The notes beneath the pieces are model-generated. The model saw only the letters and a list, made by a program, of their open reading frames with translations, was not told the origin of the DNA and made no database searches. From the NCBI RefSeq assembly GCF_003334785.1, contig NZ_QOWV01000004.1: DNA of 64,000 nt; one strand, given 5' to 3'. Positions within the stretch are counted from its first letter, which is position 1, and each line of letters opens with the position of its first letter. Below are positions 2,053 to 10,583 of this stretch, piece by piece. The position numbers and the translations under genes are program-made. The DNA is from Escherichia coli. GTDB taxonomy: Bacteria > Pseudomonadota > Gammaproteobacteria > Enterobacterales > Enterobacteriaceae.

Positions 2053-2067
2053 GCGAGGTAACAATGA

Positions 2068-2092
2068 ATTCGCCAGACTGTGTCTGGCGAAT
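2068..2092. repeat. Solo palindrome ATTCGCCAGAC-tgtg-TCTGGCGAAT, same family as the yhcG repeats
   Basis: Near-perfect inverted repeat read directly 15 nt after gltD stop; not followed by a T-run. Confidence 0.6.
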
Positions 2093-2611
2093 CAAATTAC
2101 TGACGAAGTGCGCGTTGTTTTCTGGCAAATGCGGCATGAGCGTTTGACCTTTCCTATAATAGGGATAATTTTCAATAAATTGTGCTTTGTTCACCAAGTC
2201 TGATGAGTGAAGCACATCAAGCAATTTCTCATTTACAATCCGTCTCAATTACTTGTTAACACCTCTGACAATACCGATTCTGCAAGCTATTCAGTCTTTT
2301 CATTCCATGTAAATTGTCTCGATATTAATATACAAAATATGAATATAAAAAACCAATATATTATCCTTAATTATCTATATATTTTCCTATTTTTCAGCGC
2401 AAACATTCATGTAATGAATAATTATCACCACAAACCACCTCACCAGCACCTTATTATTCACATGATCGTAACTATAAAATTCATTAAATAAATACATCCC
2501 AGCAAGTTGGCTATTTCTGAACGAGTTATTTATTTACATTCACAAACAGATATATATACTGCTTCAGCTTTTTATTTTAAAAAATAAATTTGTTATTAAG
2601 GATATGTTCAT

Positions 2612-3376
2612 ATGTTTTTCAAAAAGAACCTCACAACAGCTGCTATTTGTGCAGCACTTTCTGTTGCAGCATTCAGTGCCATGGCAACAGATTCAACTGA
2701 TACAGAATTAACTATCATCGGCGAGTATACCCCTGGTGCATGTACCCCAGTTGTTACGGGCGGCGGCATTGTTGACTATGGGAAACATCATAACAGTGCG
2801 CTGAATCCGACCGGTAAAAGTAATAAACTGGTTCAACTGGGCCGCAAAAACAGCACATTAAATATAACCTGCACAGCACCAACGCTAATTGCTGTAACCT
2901 CCAAGGATAACCGTCAGTCGACCATTGTAGCGTTAAACGACACATCCTATATTGAAAAAGCTTATGATACTCTCGTAGATATGAAGGGAACGAAAAACGC
3001 CTTTGGTTTAGGTTCTGCGCCTAATGGACAAAAAATTGGCGCTGCATCCATTGGTATTGACAGGTCTAATGGTGGGATTCACGCGGCGGACGATACAGGT
3101 GAAATTCCTGTCGACCTGATTCAAACTGACCACTGGTCAGCAGCGACCCCCACATGGAAAGCCTCATCTAATGGCGCATTCTGCTCGCTGACAAGTTGCT
3201 CAGCAATCGAGCGCGGTTATTCTGTTGCAAAAACAGGGGAACTGACACCTGTTGCCATTACAGCGGTCACCTTCCCGTTACTGATTGATGCTGCGGTAAA
3301 TGACAATACTATTCTTGGTTCTGATGAAACGATCAAACTGGATGGTAACGTCACTATCAGCGTTCAGTATTTATAA
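2612..3376 (+). CDS. gltF: Fimbrial-like secreted protein (DUF1120 type), first gene of yhc chaperone-usher cluster
   Basis: ATG with AAGGA SD; N-terminal signal peptide; C-terminal ...VTISVQYL resembling YhcF C-terminus; 500-bp AT-rich upstream region. Confidence 0.85.
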   Translation: MFFKKNLTTAAICAALSVAAFSAMATDSTDTELTIIGEYTPGACTPVVTGGGIVDYGKHHNSALNPTGKSNKLVQLGRKNSTLNITCTAPTLIAVTSKDNRQSTIVALNDTSYIEKAYDTLVDMKGTKNAFGLGSAPNGQKIGAASIGIDRSNGGIHAADDTGEIPVDLIQTDHWSAATPTWKASSNGAFCSLTSCSAIERGYSVAKTGELTPVAITAVTFPLLIDAAVNDNTILGSDETIKLDGNVTISVQYL

Positions 3377-3547
3377 GAACTTGTAATACAGTTTTTATTT
3401 TTACGCATTAACCAGTTAGCTATAACTCGGACAGATTATGCCCTATGACATGGTCTGTCTTAATCAATCTCATCGCAAACAGTGCATAACATATATTAAC
3501 AATATGTTTCTGCGTTATTTATCATTATTACAGGAGTTTTAATTTAA

Positions 3548-4222
3548 ATGCTCAGACACATTACATTCACTGTATTTATAACAACATCAATGAATACCTT
3601 AGCCACAGGGATGGTTCCTGAAACATCAGTATTGCTGGTTGATGAAAAGCGTGGTGAAGCTAGTATTAATATTAAGAATACAGATGATCATCCTTCATTG
3701 CTTTACACCACCATTGTTGATTTGCCTGAAAGCAATAAATCAATTCGTTTAATCCCGACTCAGCCCGTTATTCGTGTTGAAGCCGGTCAAGTACAACAGG
3801 TTCGATTTTTACTTCAGGCGACTGTTCCTCTGCAATCAGAAGAGCTGAAACGCGTAACGTTCGAAGGTATTCCACCAAAAGATGACAAGAGCAGCAGAGT
3901 TACTGTTTCAATTCGTCAGGATCTACCTGTACTGATCCACCCGGCTTCCCTGCCGGAAGAGCGAGAGACCTGGAAATTCCTGGAATGGCGTAAAAATGGC
4001 GACCAAATTGAGATTAGCAACCCCAGTAATTATGTCGTTCGTATGACCTTACAATTTAAAACGCTCCCTTCAGGAAAAACGGGGGCTATAAATAAGACCT
4101 ATTTTCTACCACACACCAGTACAACTACTGCATTAACAAACGCTACGGATACAAAAGTCGAGTTTTACCCAGCCAGCCGATATGGTTATCGCGGTAATAA
4201 ATATGTCACTGACTTAAAATAA
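3548..4222 (+). CDS. yhcA: Periplasmic fimbrial chaperone (PapD-like), 224 aa
   Basis: ORF with signal peptide; position between fimbrial subunit and usher. Confidence 0.85.
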   Translation: MLRHITFTVFITTSMNTLATGMVPETSVLLVDEKRGEASINIKNTDDHPSLLYTTIVDLPESNKSIRLIPTQPVIRVEAGQVQQVRFLLQATVPLQSEELKRVTFEGIPPKDDKSSRVTVSIRQDLPVLIHPASLPEERETWKFLEWRKNGDQIEISNPSNYVVRMTLQFKTLPSGKTGAINKTYFLPHTSTTTALTNATDTKVEFYPASRYGYRGNKYVTDLK

Positions 4223-4242
4223 CTTTGCCTGGAGCGACAAGG

Positions 4243-6624
4243 ATGTTAAAAAAAACGTTACTGGCCTACACCATTGGTTTTGCCTTTTCTCCCCCAGCCA
4301 ATGCAGATGGTATAGAGATTGCCGCTGTTGATTTTGATCGGGAAACATTAAAATCACTAGGTGTAGATCCTAATATATCGCATTATTTTTCCCGTTCAGC
4401 CCGTTTTTTGCCAGGTGAATATTCACTGATAGTATCAGTAAATGGCGAAAAAAAAGGCAACATTGCTACGCGCTTTGATGAAAATGGCGACATTTGTCTT
4501 GATCAGGCATTTCTGCAACAAGCCGGTTTAAAAATTCCTTCTGAAGAAAAAAATGGCTGTTACGACTATATATTGTCCTACCCGGGTACCACAATCACAC
4601 CATTACCTAACCAGGAAGCGTTAGATATTATCGTTTCACCACAGGCGATCATTCCCATAGGGTTGGATCTCACAAACGCAGCAACTGGTGGAACAGCTGC
4701 GCTGCTAAACTACTCTCTGATGAGCAGCCGTGCAGAATTTTCTAATGGGAGTTCGGACTACTCCCAGGCTGCACTTGAAGGCGGGATTAATATTAATGAC
4801 TGGATGTTACGCAGCCATCAGTTCCTTACACAAACAAATGGCACATTCAGTAACCAGAACTCGTCAACCTACCTTCAACGTACCTTTACAGATCTTAAAA
4901 CACTCATGCGAGCAGGTGAAGTTAACCTCAATAATAGCGTGTTGGAAGGAGCCAGTATTTACGGTATCGAAATCGCACCGGACAACGCATTGCAAACCAG
5001 CGGCAATGGTGTGCAAGTTACTGGTATAGCCAACACCTCTCAGGCTCGTGTCGAGATTCGTCAACAAGGAGTTTTAATTCATTCCATTCTGGTTCCTGCG
5101 GGCGCATTCACTATCCCTGATGTACCTGTTCGCAATGGTAATAGTGATCTTAATGTCACCGTTGTCGAAACAGACGGTAGTTCGCACAACTATATTGTTC
5201 CCTCCACCCTGTTTAATCAGCATGTAGAAAGCTTCCAGGGTTATCGCTTCGCGATAGGGCGGGTAGACGATGACTATGACGAATCACCTTGGGTAATTAG
5301 TGCATCGAGCGGATGGAATCTGACACGCTGGAGTGCAATGAACGGCGGCGTTATCGTAGCAGAAAATTATCAGGCGGCATCAATCCGGTCGAGTCTGGTT
5401 CCCCTGCCCGATTTAACAGTGAGCAGCCAAATTAGTACATCGCAGGATACGAAAGACTCACTGCAAGGACAGAAATATCGTCTTGACGCGAACTACAATC
5501 TCCCATTTTCACTTGGGCTAACAACCAGCCTCACTCGATCTGATCGCCATTATCGCGAACTGTCTGAAGCGATTGATGATGATTATACCGATCCGACTAA
5601 AAGCACTTATGCGCTTGGTTTAAACTGGTCTAACTCCATTCTGGGTGGTTTCAACATCAGTGGCTATAAAACATATAGTTACGACGGTGACAATGACTCA
5701 AGCAACCTTAATATTAACTGGAACAAAGCGTTCAAACACGCCACGGTTTCCGTCAACTGGCAGCATCAACTTAGTGCTTCAGAAAATAATGAAGACGATG
5801 GTGATCTGTTCTACGTCAACATCAGTATTCCATTTGGCAGATCAAACACCGCCACACTGTATACTCGCCATGACGATCATAAAACCCACTATGGTACTGG
5901 TGTCATGGGAGTCGTCTCAGATGAGATGTCCTACTATGTGAATGCTGAACGAGATCACGACGAACGTGAAACGAGCTTGAACGGCAGTATCAGTTCCAAT
6001 CTCCATTACACCCAAGTCAGCCTTGCCGCAGGAGCAAGCGGCAGTGATAGCCGTACTTACAACGGTACGATGTCAGGTGGTATTGCCGTACATGATCAGG
6101 GAGTGACCTTTTCACCGTGGACTATCAATGACACTTTCGCCATCGCAAAAATGGATAACAATATTGCAGGTGTCAGAATTACATCTCAGGCAGGCCCAGT
6201 ATGGACAGATTTTCGGGGTAATGCCGTCATTCCATCAATCCAGCCGTGGCGAACATCAGGAGTTGAGATCGATACCGCCAGCTTGCCAAAAAATGTCGAT
6301 ATCGGTAACGGCACAAAAATGATCAAACAAGGCCGTGGTGCAGTAGGGAAAGTCGGATTCAGTGCGATAACACAACGCCGTGCATTACTCAATATCACAC
6401 TTTCCGACGGCAAAAAACTGCCCAGAGGCGTTGCGATTGAAGATAGTGAAGGCAACTATCTGACAACATCAGTGGATGACGGTGTTGTATTCCTCAATAA
6501 CATCAAACCGGACATGGTGCTAGATATAAAAGATGAGCAGCAATCATGCCGTATTCACCTTACATTCCCAGAAGATGCACCAAAAGATGTGTTCTATGAG
6601 ACAGCAACAGGAGAGTGCCAATGA
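4243..6624 (+). CDS. yhcD: Outer-membrane fimbrial usher, about 793 aa
   Basis: Large ORF; start trimmed from TTG at 4225 to ATG at 4243 preceded by GGAG; usher-like size and composition. Confidence 0.85.
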   Translation: MLKKTLLAYTIGFAFSPPANADGIEIAAVDFDRETLKSLGVDPNISHYFSRSARFLPGEYSLIVSVNGEKKGNIATRFDENGDICLDQAFLQQAGLKIPSEEKNGCYDYILSYPGTTITPLPNQEALDIIVSPQAIIPIGLDLTNAATGGTAALLNYSLMSSRAEFSNGSSDYSQAALEGGININDWMLRSHQFLTQTNGTFSNQNSSTYLQRTFTDLKTLMRAGEVNLNNSVLEGASIYGIEIAPDNALQTSGNGVQVTGIANTSQARVEIRQQGVLIHSILVPAGAFTIPDVPVRNGNSDLNVTVVETDGSSHNYIVPSTLFNQHVESFQGYRFAIGRVDDDYDESPWVISASSGWNLTRWSAMNGGVIVAENYQAASIRSSLVPLPDLTVSSQISTSQDTKDSLQGQKYRLDANYNLPFSLGLTTSLTRSDRHYRELSEAIDDDYTDPTKSTYALGLNWSNSILGGFNISGYKTYSYDGDNDSSNLNINWNKAFKHATVSVNWQHQLSASENNEDDGDLFYVNISIPFGRSNTATLYTRHDDHKTHYGTGVMGVVSDEMSYYVNAERDHDERETSLNGSISSNLHYTQVSLAAGASGSDSRTYNGTMSGGIAVHDQGVTFSPWTINDTFAIAKMDNNIAGVRITSQAGPVWTDFRGNAVIPSIQPWRTSGVEIDTASLPKNVDIGNGTKMIKQGRGAVGKVGFSAITQRRALLNITLSDGKKLPRGVAIEDSEGNYLTTSVDDGVVFLNNIKPDMVLDIKDEQQSCRIHLTFPEDAPKDVFYETATGECQ

Positions 6625-7166
6625 AACGGATAATAACAGGATGCCTGCTGCTGAACTTCGCCATGGCCGCTCAGGCAGAGTGTAATATCTCCAGTAGCAT
6701 ACAAAATATCGACTATGGCAAACGAAGTGCTGCCATGCGCCAAGTTGACCGGGGTAAAACAACACAATTAGCAGACAGAACAATCACGCTGGTAATGCAA
6801 TGCGATCAGGACGCTCATATTCGTGTTCAGTTGAATACCGCTAATATTTCCAACAACGGATTTGGATTTGGCCCGAATGGTTCATTAAATCTGATCGCCA
6901 GCGATGCATTTTCAGGTAGTAACAATCTCGACCTGGCGTTAGCCAGTGGCAAAAATGACAATCCGGGCAGCACAGGAACAGCATCAATTAGTACTTCCCC
7001 CAATAATTGGCTGGTGTTTATGCAAAATGGTCAAGAAGTGGTAATTGATAGCGGTAAAAGCGTTAGCCTCACACTGACAATGGCTCCAGCTTTTAAGGAT
7101 GAAGGGGAACTAACCGACATGACAGATATTACAGGCAATCTGACGGTCCTGGTGGAGGCAAAATGA
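6621..7166 (+). CDS. yhcE: Fimbrial-like protein (DUF1120 type), uninterrupted here
   Basis: ATG at 6621 overlapping yhcD stop (ATGA); signal peptide MKRIITGCLLLNFAMAAQA; AGGAG SD. Confidence 0.75.
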   Translation: MKRIITGCLLLNFAMAAQAECNISSSIQNIDYGKRSAAMRQVDRGKTTQLADRTITLVMQCDQDAHIRVQLNTANISNNGFGFGPNGSLNLIASDAFSGSNNLDLALASGKNDNPGSTGTASISTSPNNWLVFMQNGQEVVIDSGKSVSLTLTMAPAFKDEGELTDMTDITGNLTVLVEAK

Positions 7167-7879
7167 ACAATGTAAAATTACTGATTGCCGGAAGTGCCTT
7201 TTTTGCCATGTCAGCGCAAGCCGCTGATAGAGTATCAATTGACGTTAAGGTGACTCTGGAAGCTGCAGCTTGTACTCCAATACTAAGCAACGGCGGAGTT
7301 GTTAACTTCGGTAGTCATTCAGTCAATAGACTTTCAACGCAGCACTACACACAGATTGGAACACGTAATATTAATATGACTATAACTTGCGAATCCGCTA
7401 CCGGCATTGCGATTACCGCTCGTGATACACGAATGGATAGTATGACCACCGGAAAAGATAGTGGGGGTCAGAGTGGTGTAAAATATACCTTAAATGGCGG
7501 AGGTTATATTAGCCAGACAACGCGCTTATTCGGCTTAGGGAAAACAAAAGATAATAAAAATATCGGTAGTTATGCCGTGTTAATTGATAGCAACAACATT
7601 AGTGCCAGCAATGGTAGCCAGACGTTAGCTGTATCAATAGCAGGTGCAGATGCCGTCATAACAGGGCAAAAAAGAGCATGGCAAACGCTCACCGCTTATC
7701 CGCTTGCAGTCGATCAAAGCTATTATTACACCTTTGTAAAACCAGGTGAAACAACCCCAACTCCTGTAACGAACGCCATTATACCGCTTCAGGTGAGCGC
7801 ATCTATCGCGAATGATTTAGGCGGTTCAGAAAAAATCGAACTTGATGGGAAAGCTGTGATAAGCGTAGTCTACTTGTGA
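7163..7879 (+). CDS. yhcF: Fimbrial-like protein (DUF1120 type), 238 aa
   Basis: ATGA overlap with yhcE; signal peptide; C-terminal ...VISVVYL shared with GltF. Confidence 0.8.
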   Translation: MNNVKLLIAGSAFFAMSAQAADRVSIDVKVTLEAAACTPILSNGGVVNFGSHSVNRLSTQHYTQIGTRNINMTITCESATGIAITARDTRMDSMTTGKDSGGQSGVKYTLNGGGYISQTTRLFGLGKTKDNKNIGSYAVLIDSNNISASNGSQTLAVSIAGADAVITGQKRAWQTLTAYPLAVDQSYYYTFVKPGETTPTPVTNAIIPLQVSASIANDLGGSEKIELDGKAVISVVYL

Positions 7880-8063
7880 TAACAATGCCGGACAGGAGTA
7901 CTATCAGGCATTCGTTTTATACGATCGGTTAATGTTTCAGGAAAGCTCTTCGCATATCTTGGGGAAAGTAAATGTAATACGCTGTTCTTAATTGTTCAGT
8001 GCTCACCCCCCAGAGTATAGCTCATTCCATTATTCAACTTAGCTCCATATAAAGGGACAGATA

Positions 8064-9191
8064 ATGGAATCGCTCTCAGAAGGAACCACAGCAGGCTACC
8101 AGCAAATCCACGACGGTATTATTCATCTGGTCGATAGCGCCCGGACGGAAACGGTACGTAGCGTTAACGCGTTAATGACCGCGACGTACCAGGAAATTGG
8201 CCGACGAATTGTCGAATTTGAACAAGGTGGCGAGGCCAGGGCTGCGTATGGTGCGCAGCTAATCAAGCGACTATCAAAGGATTTATGTCTAAGGTATAAG
8301 CGTGGGTTCTCTGCAAAAAACTTACGCCAAATGAGGCTTTTTTACCTCTTTTTTCAACATGTTGAAATTCGCCAGACAATGTCTGGCGAATTAACACCAT
8401 TGGGAATTCCGCAGACACCGTCTGCAGAATTCCCATCGGCAAAGATTTGGCAGACGCTGTCTGCCAAATCTTTCCCCTTGCCCAGGTCCACCTACGTCCG
8501 TTTACTTTCCGTTAAAAACGCTGACGCCCGCAGCTTTTATGAAAAAGAGACGCTCCGCTGTGGCTGGTCTGTTCGCCAGCTAGAGCGGCAAATTGCGACC
8601 CAGTTTTATGAGCGGACACTACTGTCACATGACAAATCAGCCATGCTGCAACAACACGCTCCTGCCGAGACGCATATTCTTCCGCAACAGGCGATACGCG
8701 ATCCCTTTGTGCTCGAATTTCTGGAATTGAAAGATGAATATTCAGAATCCGATTTTGAGGAGGCGCTGATCAACCACCTGATGGATTTCATGCTGGAACT
8801 TGGGGATGATTTTGCCTTTGTTGGTCGGCAGCGAAGGTTACGCATTGATGACAACTGGTTTCGTGTCGATCTGCTGTTTTTCCACCGCCGTTTACGCTGC
8901 CTGCTAATCGTCGATCTAAAAGTGGGCAAATTCAGCTATAGCGATGCCGGACAGATGAATATGTATCTCAACTACGCCAAAGAGCACTGGACGCTACCGG
9001 ATGAAAATCCGCCCATCGGTCTGGTTCTCTGTGCAGAGAAAGGAGCCGGAGAAGCGCATTATGCTCTGGCAGGTTTGCCTAACACCGTTCTGGCAAGCGA
9101 ATATAAGATGCAACTACCTGATGAGAAACGACTCGCAGATGAACTCGTTCGAACACAGGCGGTGCTAGAGGAAGGCTATAGACGCCGTTAA
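8064..9191 (+). CDS. yhcG: DUF1016 / PD-(D/E)XK nuclease-superfamily protein, 375 aa
   Basis: ORF 375 aa; C-terminal region has candidate D ... (I/V)DLK PD-(D/E)XK motif (RVDLLFF ... LIVDLKVGK); contains in-frame 39-bp repeats. Confidence 0.85.
   Translation: MESLSEGTTAGYQQIHDGIIHLVDSARTETVRSVNALMTATYQEIGRRIVEFEQGGEARAAYGAQLIKRLSKDLCLRYKRGFSAKNLRQMRLFYLFFQHVEIRQTMSGELTPLGIPQTPSAEFPSAKIWQTLSAKSFPLPRSTYVRLLSVKNADARSFYEKETLRCGWSVRQLERQIATQFYERTLLSHDKSAMLQQHAPAETHILPQQAIRDPFVLEFLELKDEYSESDFEEALINHLMDFMLELGDDFAFVGRQRRLRIDDNWFRVDLLFFHRRLRCLLIVDLKVGKFSYSDAGQMNMYLNYAKEHWTLPDENPPIGLVLCAEKGAGEAHYALAGLPNTVLASEYKMQLPDEKRLADELVRTQAVLEEGYRRR
8360..8480. repeat. 3x tandem 39-bp repeat, each unit carrying a 13-15 bp-arm palindrome (core CAGAC-N-GTCTG), in frame inside yhcG
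   Basis: CAGAC cores at 8373, 8412, 8451 (39-bp period); palindromes 8366-8392, 8402-8434, 8441-8473; encodes three 13-residue peptide repeats (x-I-x-Q-T-x-S...). Confidence 0.75.
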
Positions 9192-9204: not shown

Positions 9205-9232
9205 GAATTCTGCAGACAGTGTCTGCAGAATC
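9205..9232. repeat. Solo palindrome GAATTCTGCAGAC-ag-tGTCTGCAGAAT, same family
   Basis: Inverted repeat read directly, 14 nt after yhcG stop. Confidence 0.6.

Positions 9233-9250: not shown

Positions 9251-10583
<1,333 letters not shown>

Follow-up and report, generated by a model that had tools for sequence, protein, structure and literature searches.

Several kinds of short palindromic elements are known in bacteria. The Rickettsia palindromic elements (RPEs), of about 100-150 bp, are mobile, scattered over many unrelated genes and polymorphic for presence and absence. The repetitive extragenic palindromes (REPs) are found outside genes, in hundreds of copies per genome, and are paired with a HUH/Y1 transposase (TnpA-REP, or REP-associated tyrosine transposase, RAYT). 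The parS site is 16 bp long, conserved in sequence and without covariation, and the attC sites of integrons (57-141 bp, with extrahelical bases and GTTRRRY/RYYYAAC cores) are recognised as folded single-stranded DNA and need the integrase IntI. We have analyzed a palindromic element found inside the gene yhcG of Escherichia coli, in a stretch of 64,000 nucleotides (nt) of contig NZ_QOWV01000004.1 (assembly GCF_003334785.1) that we call the window. Here the gene carries three tandem in-frame copies, and comparison with its homologs indicates that they represent an element of the whole YhcG/DUF1016 family, maintained at the level of the DNA.

The yhcG element resembles each of the described systems in part. 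Like the RPEs, it is a palindromic repeat located in frame inside open reading frames (ORFs), to which it adds a tolerated peptide segment. Unlike them, it measures only 25-33 bp, keeps to one gene family and to one homologous position and phase, is ancestral to the family and has spread only locally. With the REPs and the bacterial interspersed mosaic elements (BIMEs) it shares a short hairpin with few conserved bases and a variable paired stem, the formation of arrays, and the association with a cognate nuclease-type gene that it also flanks (copies P0 and P4 of E. coli and those of two metagenome-assembled genomes, MAGs, L085 and L087, described below). However, the primary copies of the yhcG family are intragenic, a locus has 1-5 copies in all and the product of the gene is a PD-(D/E)XK nuclease. 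As for a RAYT, no transposase family matched the 101-amino acid (aa) ORF that neighbours the element in some strains, and no genome-wide search was made.

In the same way as parS, which lies within parB, the element would be a site inside the gene of its own binder, but its stem sequence is free as long as it complements itself and there is no conserved 16-bp parS consensus. With attC it has in common a conserved structure over a varying sequence, conserved outer boxes and a position at the bounds of exchangeable segments, given that in E. coli the segments between palindromes have been gained, lost or replaced. Unlike attC, its units are perfect stems of 25-33 bp with ATT/AAT ends and a GAC/GTC core, and R''/R' sites and extrahelical bases are absent. 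No intI integrase was annotated in the E. coli regions fetched, in which no dedicated search was made. Finally, quasipalindrome hotspots and ColE1-type cruciforms have similar arms (11-15 bp) and loops (3-5 nt), tend likewise to be perfected, duplicated and deleted, and are substrates for junction-resolving PD-(D/E)XK enzymes, a property that is putative for the yhcG element. They are however properties of individual sequences, not inherited at a homologous site across a protein family. The yhcG element fails the defining features of RPEs, REP/RAYT, parS, attC and the classical cruciforms or quasipalindromes.

The palindromes of yhcG and of its homologs

The gene yhcG (8064-9191, plus strand, 375 aa) contains three CAGAC-N3-GTCTG cores that start at 8373, 8412 and 8451, with a spacing of exactly 39 nt. 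They belong to tandem units starting at 8352, 8391 and 8430, arranged head-to-tail with the same period of 39. The original prediction, made from the sequence of the window without database searches, had described this periodicity, these CAGAC cores and arms of 13-15 nt, and all of them were found in place. It had also proposed that the array is read in frame as three 13-residue peptides, and the ORF at 8064-9191 does encode EIRQTMSGELTPL / GIPQTPSAEFPSA / KIWQTLSAKSFPL. Palindrome 1 (8366-8392, AATTCGCCAGACA a TGTCTGGCGAATT) sits in the 39-nt unit 8352-8390 and is an inverted repeat with 13-nt arms (8366-8378 and 8380-8392) that are 100% complementary; it encodes EIRQTMSGEL and its DNA hairpin has a predicted energy of -14.3 kcal/mol (z -8.1). 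Palindrome 2 (8402-8434, GGGAATTCCGCAGAC acc GTCTGCAGAATTCCC) has 15-nt arms (8402-8416 and 8420-8434) with one mismatch, encodes GIPQTPSAEF and folds at -13.8 kcal/mol (z -7.5). Palindrome 3 (8441-8473, AAAGATTTGGCAGAC gct GTCTGCCAAATCTTT) has perfect 15-nt arms (8441-8455 and 8459-8473), which reach 18 nt if one mismatch is allowed, encodes KIWQTLSAKS and folds at -15.7 kcal/mol (z -7.8).

A search for other copies, suggested together with the original prediction, revealed two that had been overlooked there, both at the yhcG locus. P0 (2068-2092, ATTCGCCAGAC tgt GTCTGGCGAAT) is found 16 nt past the stop of gltD, at the left edge of the gltF-yhcADEF island, and its DNA hairpin folds at -12.1 kcal/mol (z -6.6). 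P4 (9207-9231, ATTCTGCAGACA g TGTCTGCAGAAT), with perfect 12-nt arms, is located 16 nt past the stop of yhcG, between the convergent yhcG and nanQ. P4 reproduces the linker unit together with about 14 nt of its 5' flank, with 73% identity over 40 nt as fourth copy of the repeat family, and in one read-through allele it is translated as RILQTLSGES. The pattern GCAGACNNNGTCTGC had 3 matches where 0.14 were expected. In the window there were 5 exact copies of the core CAGACNNNGTCTG, where the expectation was 1.25 even with one mismatch allowed; none of 100 shuffles reached 5, and all five fall between gltD and nanQ. The palindrome array is beyond chance.

A search for proteins of the family gave 21,241 at E <= 0.001, in a library with one representative per 50%-identity cluster. 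Close to E. coli, the yhcG of Salmonella has one perfect palindrome and that of Pseudocitrobacter two perfect ones plus a degenerate third. Plasmid homologs of Burkholderia (62% identity), Segatella (Bacteroidota, 39%) and Serratia (35%) have the palindrome at the same codon position with different sequences. Those of Segatella and Serratia sit between hsdM and hsdS, and members of the family are often located within type I restriction-modification loci, but a linkage to these was discarded as explanation, HsdM being adjacent in only about 12% of the loci. From a scan of one genome per species the 80 best matches were kept, with 54-93% identity and belonging to Proteobacteria, Acidobacteria, Cyanobacteria, Planctomycetes, Chloroflexi, Gemmatimonadetes, Bacteroidetes and others. 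Together with the five homologs fetched earlier they make a set of 85 genes, and in 81 of these the strongest hairpin of the gene falls in the linker. A profile scan for remote homologs, drawn from viral or prophage contigs, added 80 genes with 29-80% identity to the Serratia protein; a palindrome of at least 9 of 11 pairs was present in 74, and in 33 the centre of the best hairpin was exactly 4 codons ahead of the LSWSH motif. The stems of the remote homologs of viral contigs and plasmids (29-40% identity) are wholly different, as for example GTCGTATC/GATACGAC, GCGTCCGC/GCGGACGC and TGCTACAC/GTGTAGCA.

Overall, a palindrome in which 9 or more of the 11 positions pair was present in 157 of the 166 YhcG/DUF1016 homologs (29-93% identity, from many phyla, plasmids and prophages), and its centre is on the first codon base in 148 of the 157. 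The units were located by best-hairpin and centre scans, since indels of 3-4 codons occur between the protein anchor and the unit, and as the samples hold near-duplicates the counting was done on distinct units. With an in-phase criterion, one unit was found in 92 genes, two in 50 and three in 7, and the commonest spacings were 39 nt, in 17 cases, and 48 nt, in 13. The triple array of K-12 is thus one instance of a general tendency of the family to multi-unit linkers. The original prediction had considered a miniature palindromic element inserted into yhcG. The presence of the palindrome at a homologous codon position and phase down to about 30% identity speaks against this, and also against an element peculiar to yhcG: it is ancestral to the DUF1016 family and was not inserted, a family-wide element at the DNA level.

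Searches by pattern pointed to the same genes. The exact form ATT-N3-CAGAC-N3-GTCTG-N3-AAT was found at 41 sites in viral contigs; 23 are in DUF1016 genes, and at least 3 others fall in DUF1016 remnants. We rejected the idea that the 18 sites outside DUF1016 genes are a dispersed family; some are terminators, at least 3 are the remnants just mentioned, and the rest are compatible with chance because the 16 specified bases are palindromic and only 8 are independent. Two cores separated by 33-54 nt were found in metagenomes at a minimum of 120 loci, and among the matches listed 92 of 120 were inside DUF1016 genes; those outside the family include low-complexity protein repeats (L253, L297). The density of conserved palindromes outside DUF1016 genes was 0.36 per kb, versus a concentrated peak in the linker. 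In six metagenome contigs (L229, L240, L259, L300, L303 and L318) we observed out-of-frame tandem hairpin arrays with the CAGAC-N3-GTCTG core, in 4-8 copies with periods of 37-52 nt, and the stretches fetched contained no DUF1016 gene.

Extragenic copies are not restricted to E. coli. A Bacteroidetes MAG (L081) has a perfect palindrome with 18-nt arms and an unchanged core, GAATTGAAAACCGCAGAC acc GTCTGCGGTTTTCAATTC, 17 nt past the stop of its DUF1016 gene, in parallel to P4. In a Thermoleophilia MAG (L085:117-310) five extragenic units with different self-complementary stems are found about 0.9 kb upstream of the DUF1016 gene, and a 98-aa ribbon-helix-helix-like ORF lies between them and the gene. 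In a Rhodothermales MAG (L087:38-2348) about 30 tandem 78-nt units with the palindrome ATTCTCCAGACGGTGTCTGTAGAAT are located directly upstream of the DUF1016 gene. This last array fills an open frame of 782 aa; it is probably non-coding, because its variation shows no excess at third codon positions. The palindrome segment of the units is 1.5-9% variable, versus 17-24% for the remainder. Most of the units retain the same uncorrected C·T mismatch, though they have diverged by about 23%.

Nature of the constraint

The general form of the element is ATT-N4/5-GAC-RNY-GTC-N4/5-AAT, that is, an 11-bp stem with a 3-nt loop. The edges of the stem are sharp, positions 2-12 from the centre being paired and positions 1 and 13 lacking covariation beyond expectation. 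The loop-proximal (GAC/GTC) and basal (ATT/AAT) bases are invariant even in GC-rich genomes that disfavour the codons ATT, ACA, TCT and AAA. The loop itself reads purine-N-pyrimidine (5' to 3') in 317 of the 325 units. This rule is the same on both strands, and because of it the threonine codons ACC and ACT are almost never used.

In order to provide a reference for the stem we shuffled synonymous codons, keeping the protein and the codon usage; in 73 of the 85 genes none of 100 shuffles reached the observed stem (median 12 versus 5.6). In 107 distinct units analyzed for covariation, every one of the 11 stem pairs varies on both sides; the double-sided cells number 279, where shuffles gave 66.8 +/- 6.9, and the covariation score is 0.645 against 0.132. 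When the partner was slid by 1-3 columns pairing dropped from 95% to 22-46%; the 95% is partly built in, since the units were picked for pairing, but the covariation and codon-shuffle results are independent of this selection. At the protein level, codons 2 and 7 of the unit change jointly (R with G, L with A, V with A-Q, Q..G against E..R), a pattern in which compensatory base changes drag the amino acids along. In the AlphaFold model of YhcG (mean predicted local distance difference test, pLDDT, 84.7) residues 97-125 are a coil with pLDDT of 53-65, and the units probably encode a disordered linker.

The stem mismatches of the 325 sense-oriented units were 35 G·T, 92 A·C and 228 others, so that G·T wobble, which an mRNA hairpin would tolerate, is not favoured. 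The excess of A·C over G·T was considered as a sign of an antisense RNA and discarded, as it affects one position and is explained by the choice of Lys/Glu codons. Taken together, the strictly Watson-Crick pairs, the strand-symmetric rule, the codon shuffles and the covariation indicate that the constraint acts on the DNA and not on the protein or the sense mRNA. The five copies of K-12 have four stem types and each copy is self-complementary, and the two perfect units of another locus (L009) also have different stems, each complementary to itself. Because copies of the same genome with different stems each keep their own symmetry, we infer that each strand of the element pairs with itself, in a hairpin or an extruded cruciform, and that it does not function as a plain duplex site.

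Tandem Repeats Finder reported no array in the yhcG tract, as similarity between the units outside the symmetric core is only 63-65%. Terminator and promoter scans did not pick up any of the five copies; P0 and P4 are not terminator-like, P4 has no T-tract, and no copy combines a GC-rich hairpin with a T-tract as intrinsic terminators do. The only Rfam hit was mir-266, with 23.6 bits against a gathering score of 80. On the minus strand, the palindromic nature of the DNA leaves an open frame at 8263-8442 that encodes the mirror peptides ILQTVSAEF and LIRQTLSGEF and can mislead gene callers. A role as frameshift stimulator was also considered and rejected: the TTTTTT run 12 nt upstream in K-12 encodes a conserved FY..F motif and is not a conserved slippery site in GC-rich homologs.

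Rearrangement of the locus in E. coli

The window corresponds to a K-12-type segment with gltD (634-2052), gltF-yhcADEF, yhcG and nanQ/yhcH (9251-9715, minus strand). The genes gltF-yhcA-yhcD-yhcE-yhcF (2055-7965) form an island that many E. coli strains lack, having gltD next to yhcG instead; on the left the island begins right after the gltD stop, and this end bears P0. A stationary-phase non-coding RNA, G0-10703, has been described divergent from yhcG and overlapping its 5' region by 128 bp (about 7880-8190; PMC7967276).

We compared the palindrome by BLAST with 5,426 complete E. coli genomes and found it at a median of 2 and a maximum of 4 places per genome, all at the yhcG locus in the rows examined, which is not what a dispersed element would give. 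The number of units varies, as the original prediction had anticipated: alleles of 349, 362, 370, 375 and 382 aa carry from 1 to 4 units. The 349-aa allele (e.g. O157:H7) has one unit, the 370-aa allele two units 36 nt apart with different stems, the 375-aa allele of K-12 three and the 382-aa allele more, and between K-12 and O157 yhcG differs by an indel of 78 nt. An ordinary structural linker, for which the same units everywhere and no other copies of the palindrome would have argued, is not what we found, since the unit number varies and extra copies exist. Constant-period head-to-tail copies with copy-number polymorphism among strains are also what defines a variable-number tandem repeat.

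Variation goes beyond the number of units. When K-12 is compared with the 370-aa allele (L004) by sliding identity, a mosaic patch at 8289-8600 (plus strand), with the palindromes at its centre, shows 33-89% identity, versus 96-100% elsewhere, and is the only strongly diverged part of yhcG. The patch resembles the Pseudocitrobacter sequence, which suggests that gene conversion between species took place around the palindromes. In some genomes (L001, L002, L330-L332) yhcG is truncated and the breakpoint, between GTCTGCCAAAT and TGAGAGG, falls exactly at the 3' edge of palindrome 3. Directly after it the nuclease domain has been swapped for an unrelated 101-aa ORF (L001:2052-2357, and equally in the other four), annotated as "transposase" (WP_000639208) and followed by a GC-rich hairpin of its own; this ORF had no match in Pfam, NCBIfam, PHROGs or PADLOC. 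In one derivative of the truncated allele units 1-2 are also gone, in register. Insertions of IS1 occur in yhcG as well, and in one case (L171:1788-2500) one end of the IS1 lies directly against the left arm of palindrome 3, with loss of the N-terminal part of yhcG.

The most drastic variant was found in 946 of the 5,426 genomes, where the gap between gltD and nanQ is only 67 nt with one palindrome inside (e.g. L170:2943-3009, strain 3385). The left flank of this palindrome is that of P0 and the right flank that of P4, and the BLAST homology of the other allele types to this empty site ends exactly at the palindrome edges. The empty site may be either the signature of a recombination between P0 and P4 that removed 7.1 kb (gltF-yhcADEF-yhcG) or an attachment (att)-like site. 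With structural variants ending exactly at palindrome edges, the data fit the recombination site or slippage-prone tract that had been among the original proposals. In E. coli the palindromes are where the yhcG locus rearranges, and the site is recombinogenic. They explain the plasticity of the gltD-nanQ region over the 5,426 genomes: the unit number, the mosaic patch, the swap of the nuclease domain and the 7.1-kb deletion that leaves a single palindrome.

A possible target of the encoded nuclease

YhcG matches the Pfam families DUF1016_N and YhcG_C (E 1.3e-36 and 1.6e-56), the PADLOC candidate defence family PDC-S02 (E 2.8e-131) and the uncharacterised PHROG phrog_22762. It had no match in NCBIfam and no relative with solved structure in a sequence search of the PDB. 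Along the protein there is an N-terminal helical bundle, the low-confidence linker (residues about 97-125), a helical helix-turn-helix (HTH)-like region and the PD-(D/E)XK nuclease domain. The original prediction had placed the array between the N-terminal and the nuclease-like domains. The location in a linker stands; it is not strictly between two Pfam domains, as the array is inside the DUF1016_N envelope, which covers residues 19-184 on a model of 137 positions and therefore holds about 30 extra residues. The nuclease was predicted to be similar to YraN and the archaeal Holliday junction (HJ) resolvases (PMC1189080). We describe YhcG as a predicted PD-(D/E)XK nuclease of the HJ-resolvase/NucS type with a putative ParB-like helical DNA-binding region, and its listing in PADLOC makes it a candidate for an anti-phage role. 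In a Burkholderia cepacia plasmid (L005:502-780) there is a 4-nt overlap between the gene of a HU-family DNA-binding protein and the beginning of the DUF1016 gene; HU binds preferentially to bent and cruciform DNA.

The explanation that we favour, tentatively and with somewhat less than even confidence, is that the palindrome is a hairpin or cruciform site recognised by the HJ-resolvase-like nuclease of its own gene. YhcG is proposed as the recogniser because it is the sole factor present in every host that bears the element. The three units of K-12 are tandem in-frame copies of an ancient element belonging to the YhcG/DUF1016 gene family, whose units duplicate locally; K-12 has three plus two seeded just outside the gene. 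YhcG would read the loop-proximal GAC/GTC and the basal ATT/AAT pairs of the hairpin or cruciform in its own gene, and recognition would lead to self-regulation or self-marking. Local breakage, template switching and gene conversion would follow as by-products, with gain and loss of units, the mosaic patch and the palindrome-bounded deletions. The broader idea is that gene and site are one co-inherited unit, in which the in-frame hairpin or cruciform is the recognition site of the encoded nuclease, and that this system regulates or marks itself through DNA structure and drives local recombination and module exchange; we hold it with a little more reserve still.

Several points weigh against recognition by YhcG. 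YhcG was arrived at by elimination, and palindromes of any kind can be fragile even if no dedicated nuclease acts on them. Arms of 11 bp around a 3-nt loop are close to the minimum that extrudes as a cruciform in vivo. In some 5-10% of the homologs the only palindrome is degenerate, and the pairing figure is in part built in by the choice of units. The rearrangements of E. coli are a handful of events, each probably inherited by one clade. Finally, the mismatch kept in the Rhodothermales array implies that perfect pairing is not always required, which makes a sequence-specific binding to duplex DNA possible.

Among the alternatives, a functionless quasi-palindrome could perpetuate itself in a tolerant linker if intrastrand template switching copied one arm onto the other without selection on pairing. 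Such template-switch correction is reportedly an established mechanism of mutational hotspots in E. coli (Ripley; the Lovett laboratory). It would agree with the strictly Watson-Crick pairs without wobble preference, with arms lengthened to 17-18 nt in some loci (L010, L041, L081), with the disordered and substitution-tolerant linker and with the symmetry of the extragenic copies of E. coli and L085. We regard it nonetheless as unlikely: the element is retained at one homologous site in about 95% of genes down to 30% protein identity, its stem boundaries are sharp and conserved, and the invariant loop-proximal and basal bases and the purine/pyrimidine rule of the loop hold even in GC-rich genomes. 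Besides, comparable conserved palindromes are not general in linkers (the 0.36 per kb given above), and the 30-unit array of L087 has kept its C·T mismatch through a divergence of about 23%, which speaks against an automatic self-correction. The same array, which keeps the sequence of the site with mismatch included, fits with a parS-like duplex site bound as double-stranded DNA by a YhcG dimer, through a putative ParB-like HTH region, or by another regulator, for autoregulation or nucleation. Sequence constraints that are dyad-symmetric including the unpaired R-N-Y centre also agree with it, and parS within parB/spo0J is a precedent for a palindromic site inside the gene of its binder. But the inner stems differ freely between copies of the same genome (K-12, L009, L085), each still self-complementary; one protein cannot read four specificities, and bases that are not contacted would not need symmetry. 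As no copy is generally found in promoters either, we consider a duplex site distinctly unlikely.

Equally doubtful is a hairpin in the mRNA, acting as a ribosome pause between domains, as an RNase site or as a translational autorepression site that limits a toxic nuclease. The RNA folding suggested in the original prediction does give a very stable structure (-69.6 kcal/mol, z -11, for the 151-nt RNA), ORF position and codon phase are fixed, and ribosomes and RNases, being universal, would explain a conservation across phyla. Yet the sense strand does not tolerate G·U (35 G·T versus 92 A·C mismatches), the loop constraint is symmetric on both strands, and P0, P4 and the extragenic copies of L085 and L087 keep the feature outside the yhcG ORF. 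There is no T-tract and no Rfam match, and stems of 11 bp are short for RNase III. That a miniature mobile element, similar to the miniature inverted-repeat transposable elements (MITEs) or the RPEs, inserted into yhcG and expanded in frame is very improbable. The two copies outside the ORF (2068-2092 and 9207-9231), the variable copy number and the precedent of in-frame insertion by RPEs would speak for it, but every ortholog examined and 157 of the 166 homologs have the palindrome at one position and in one phase, so that the gene has no empty allele; the copies are not dispersed over the E. coli genomes, and those outside the gene include linker sequence next to the palindrome, which makes the gene their source rather than the reverse. 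Scarcely credible, finally, is an ordinary protein repeat in which the 13-residue peptide is selected and the DNA symmetry is incidental. A weak recurring motif, I-x-Q-T-x-S-x-E, can be made out; however, codon shuffles that preserve the peptide destroy the symmetry, the residues covary exactly as DNA pairing dictates, the segment is a low-confidence coil and the extragenic copies stay symmetric.

We found no paper linking YhcG, DUF1016 or PDC-S02 with a palindrome or hairpin, within a literature coverage that was incomplete. We regard it as a hairpin element tied to a cognate nuclease gene, which in this case lies inside the coding sequence. A second layer of selection, not on the protein, would be present in the coding sequence, with DNA symmetry dictating which amino acids of the linker occur together. 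This has consequences for annotation, for estimates of the ratio of nonsynonymous to synonymous substitution (dN/dS) and for repeat calling in a family of more than 20,000 sequence clusters. Should self-correction alone be what keeps the element, it would be a remarkable case of a selfish DNA structure that has lasted across phyla. If recognition by YhcG is true, a hairpin or cruciform topped by GAC-RNY-GTC and closed at its base by ATT/AAT would be a candidate substrate for this uncharacterised nuclease family, and would give a first indication of what a very widespread candidate anti-phage nuclease acts on.

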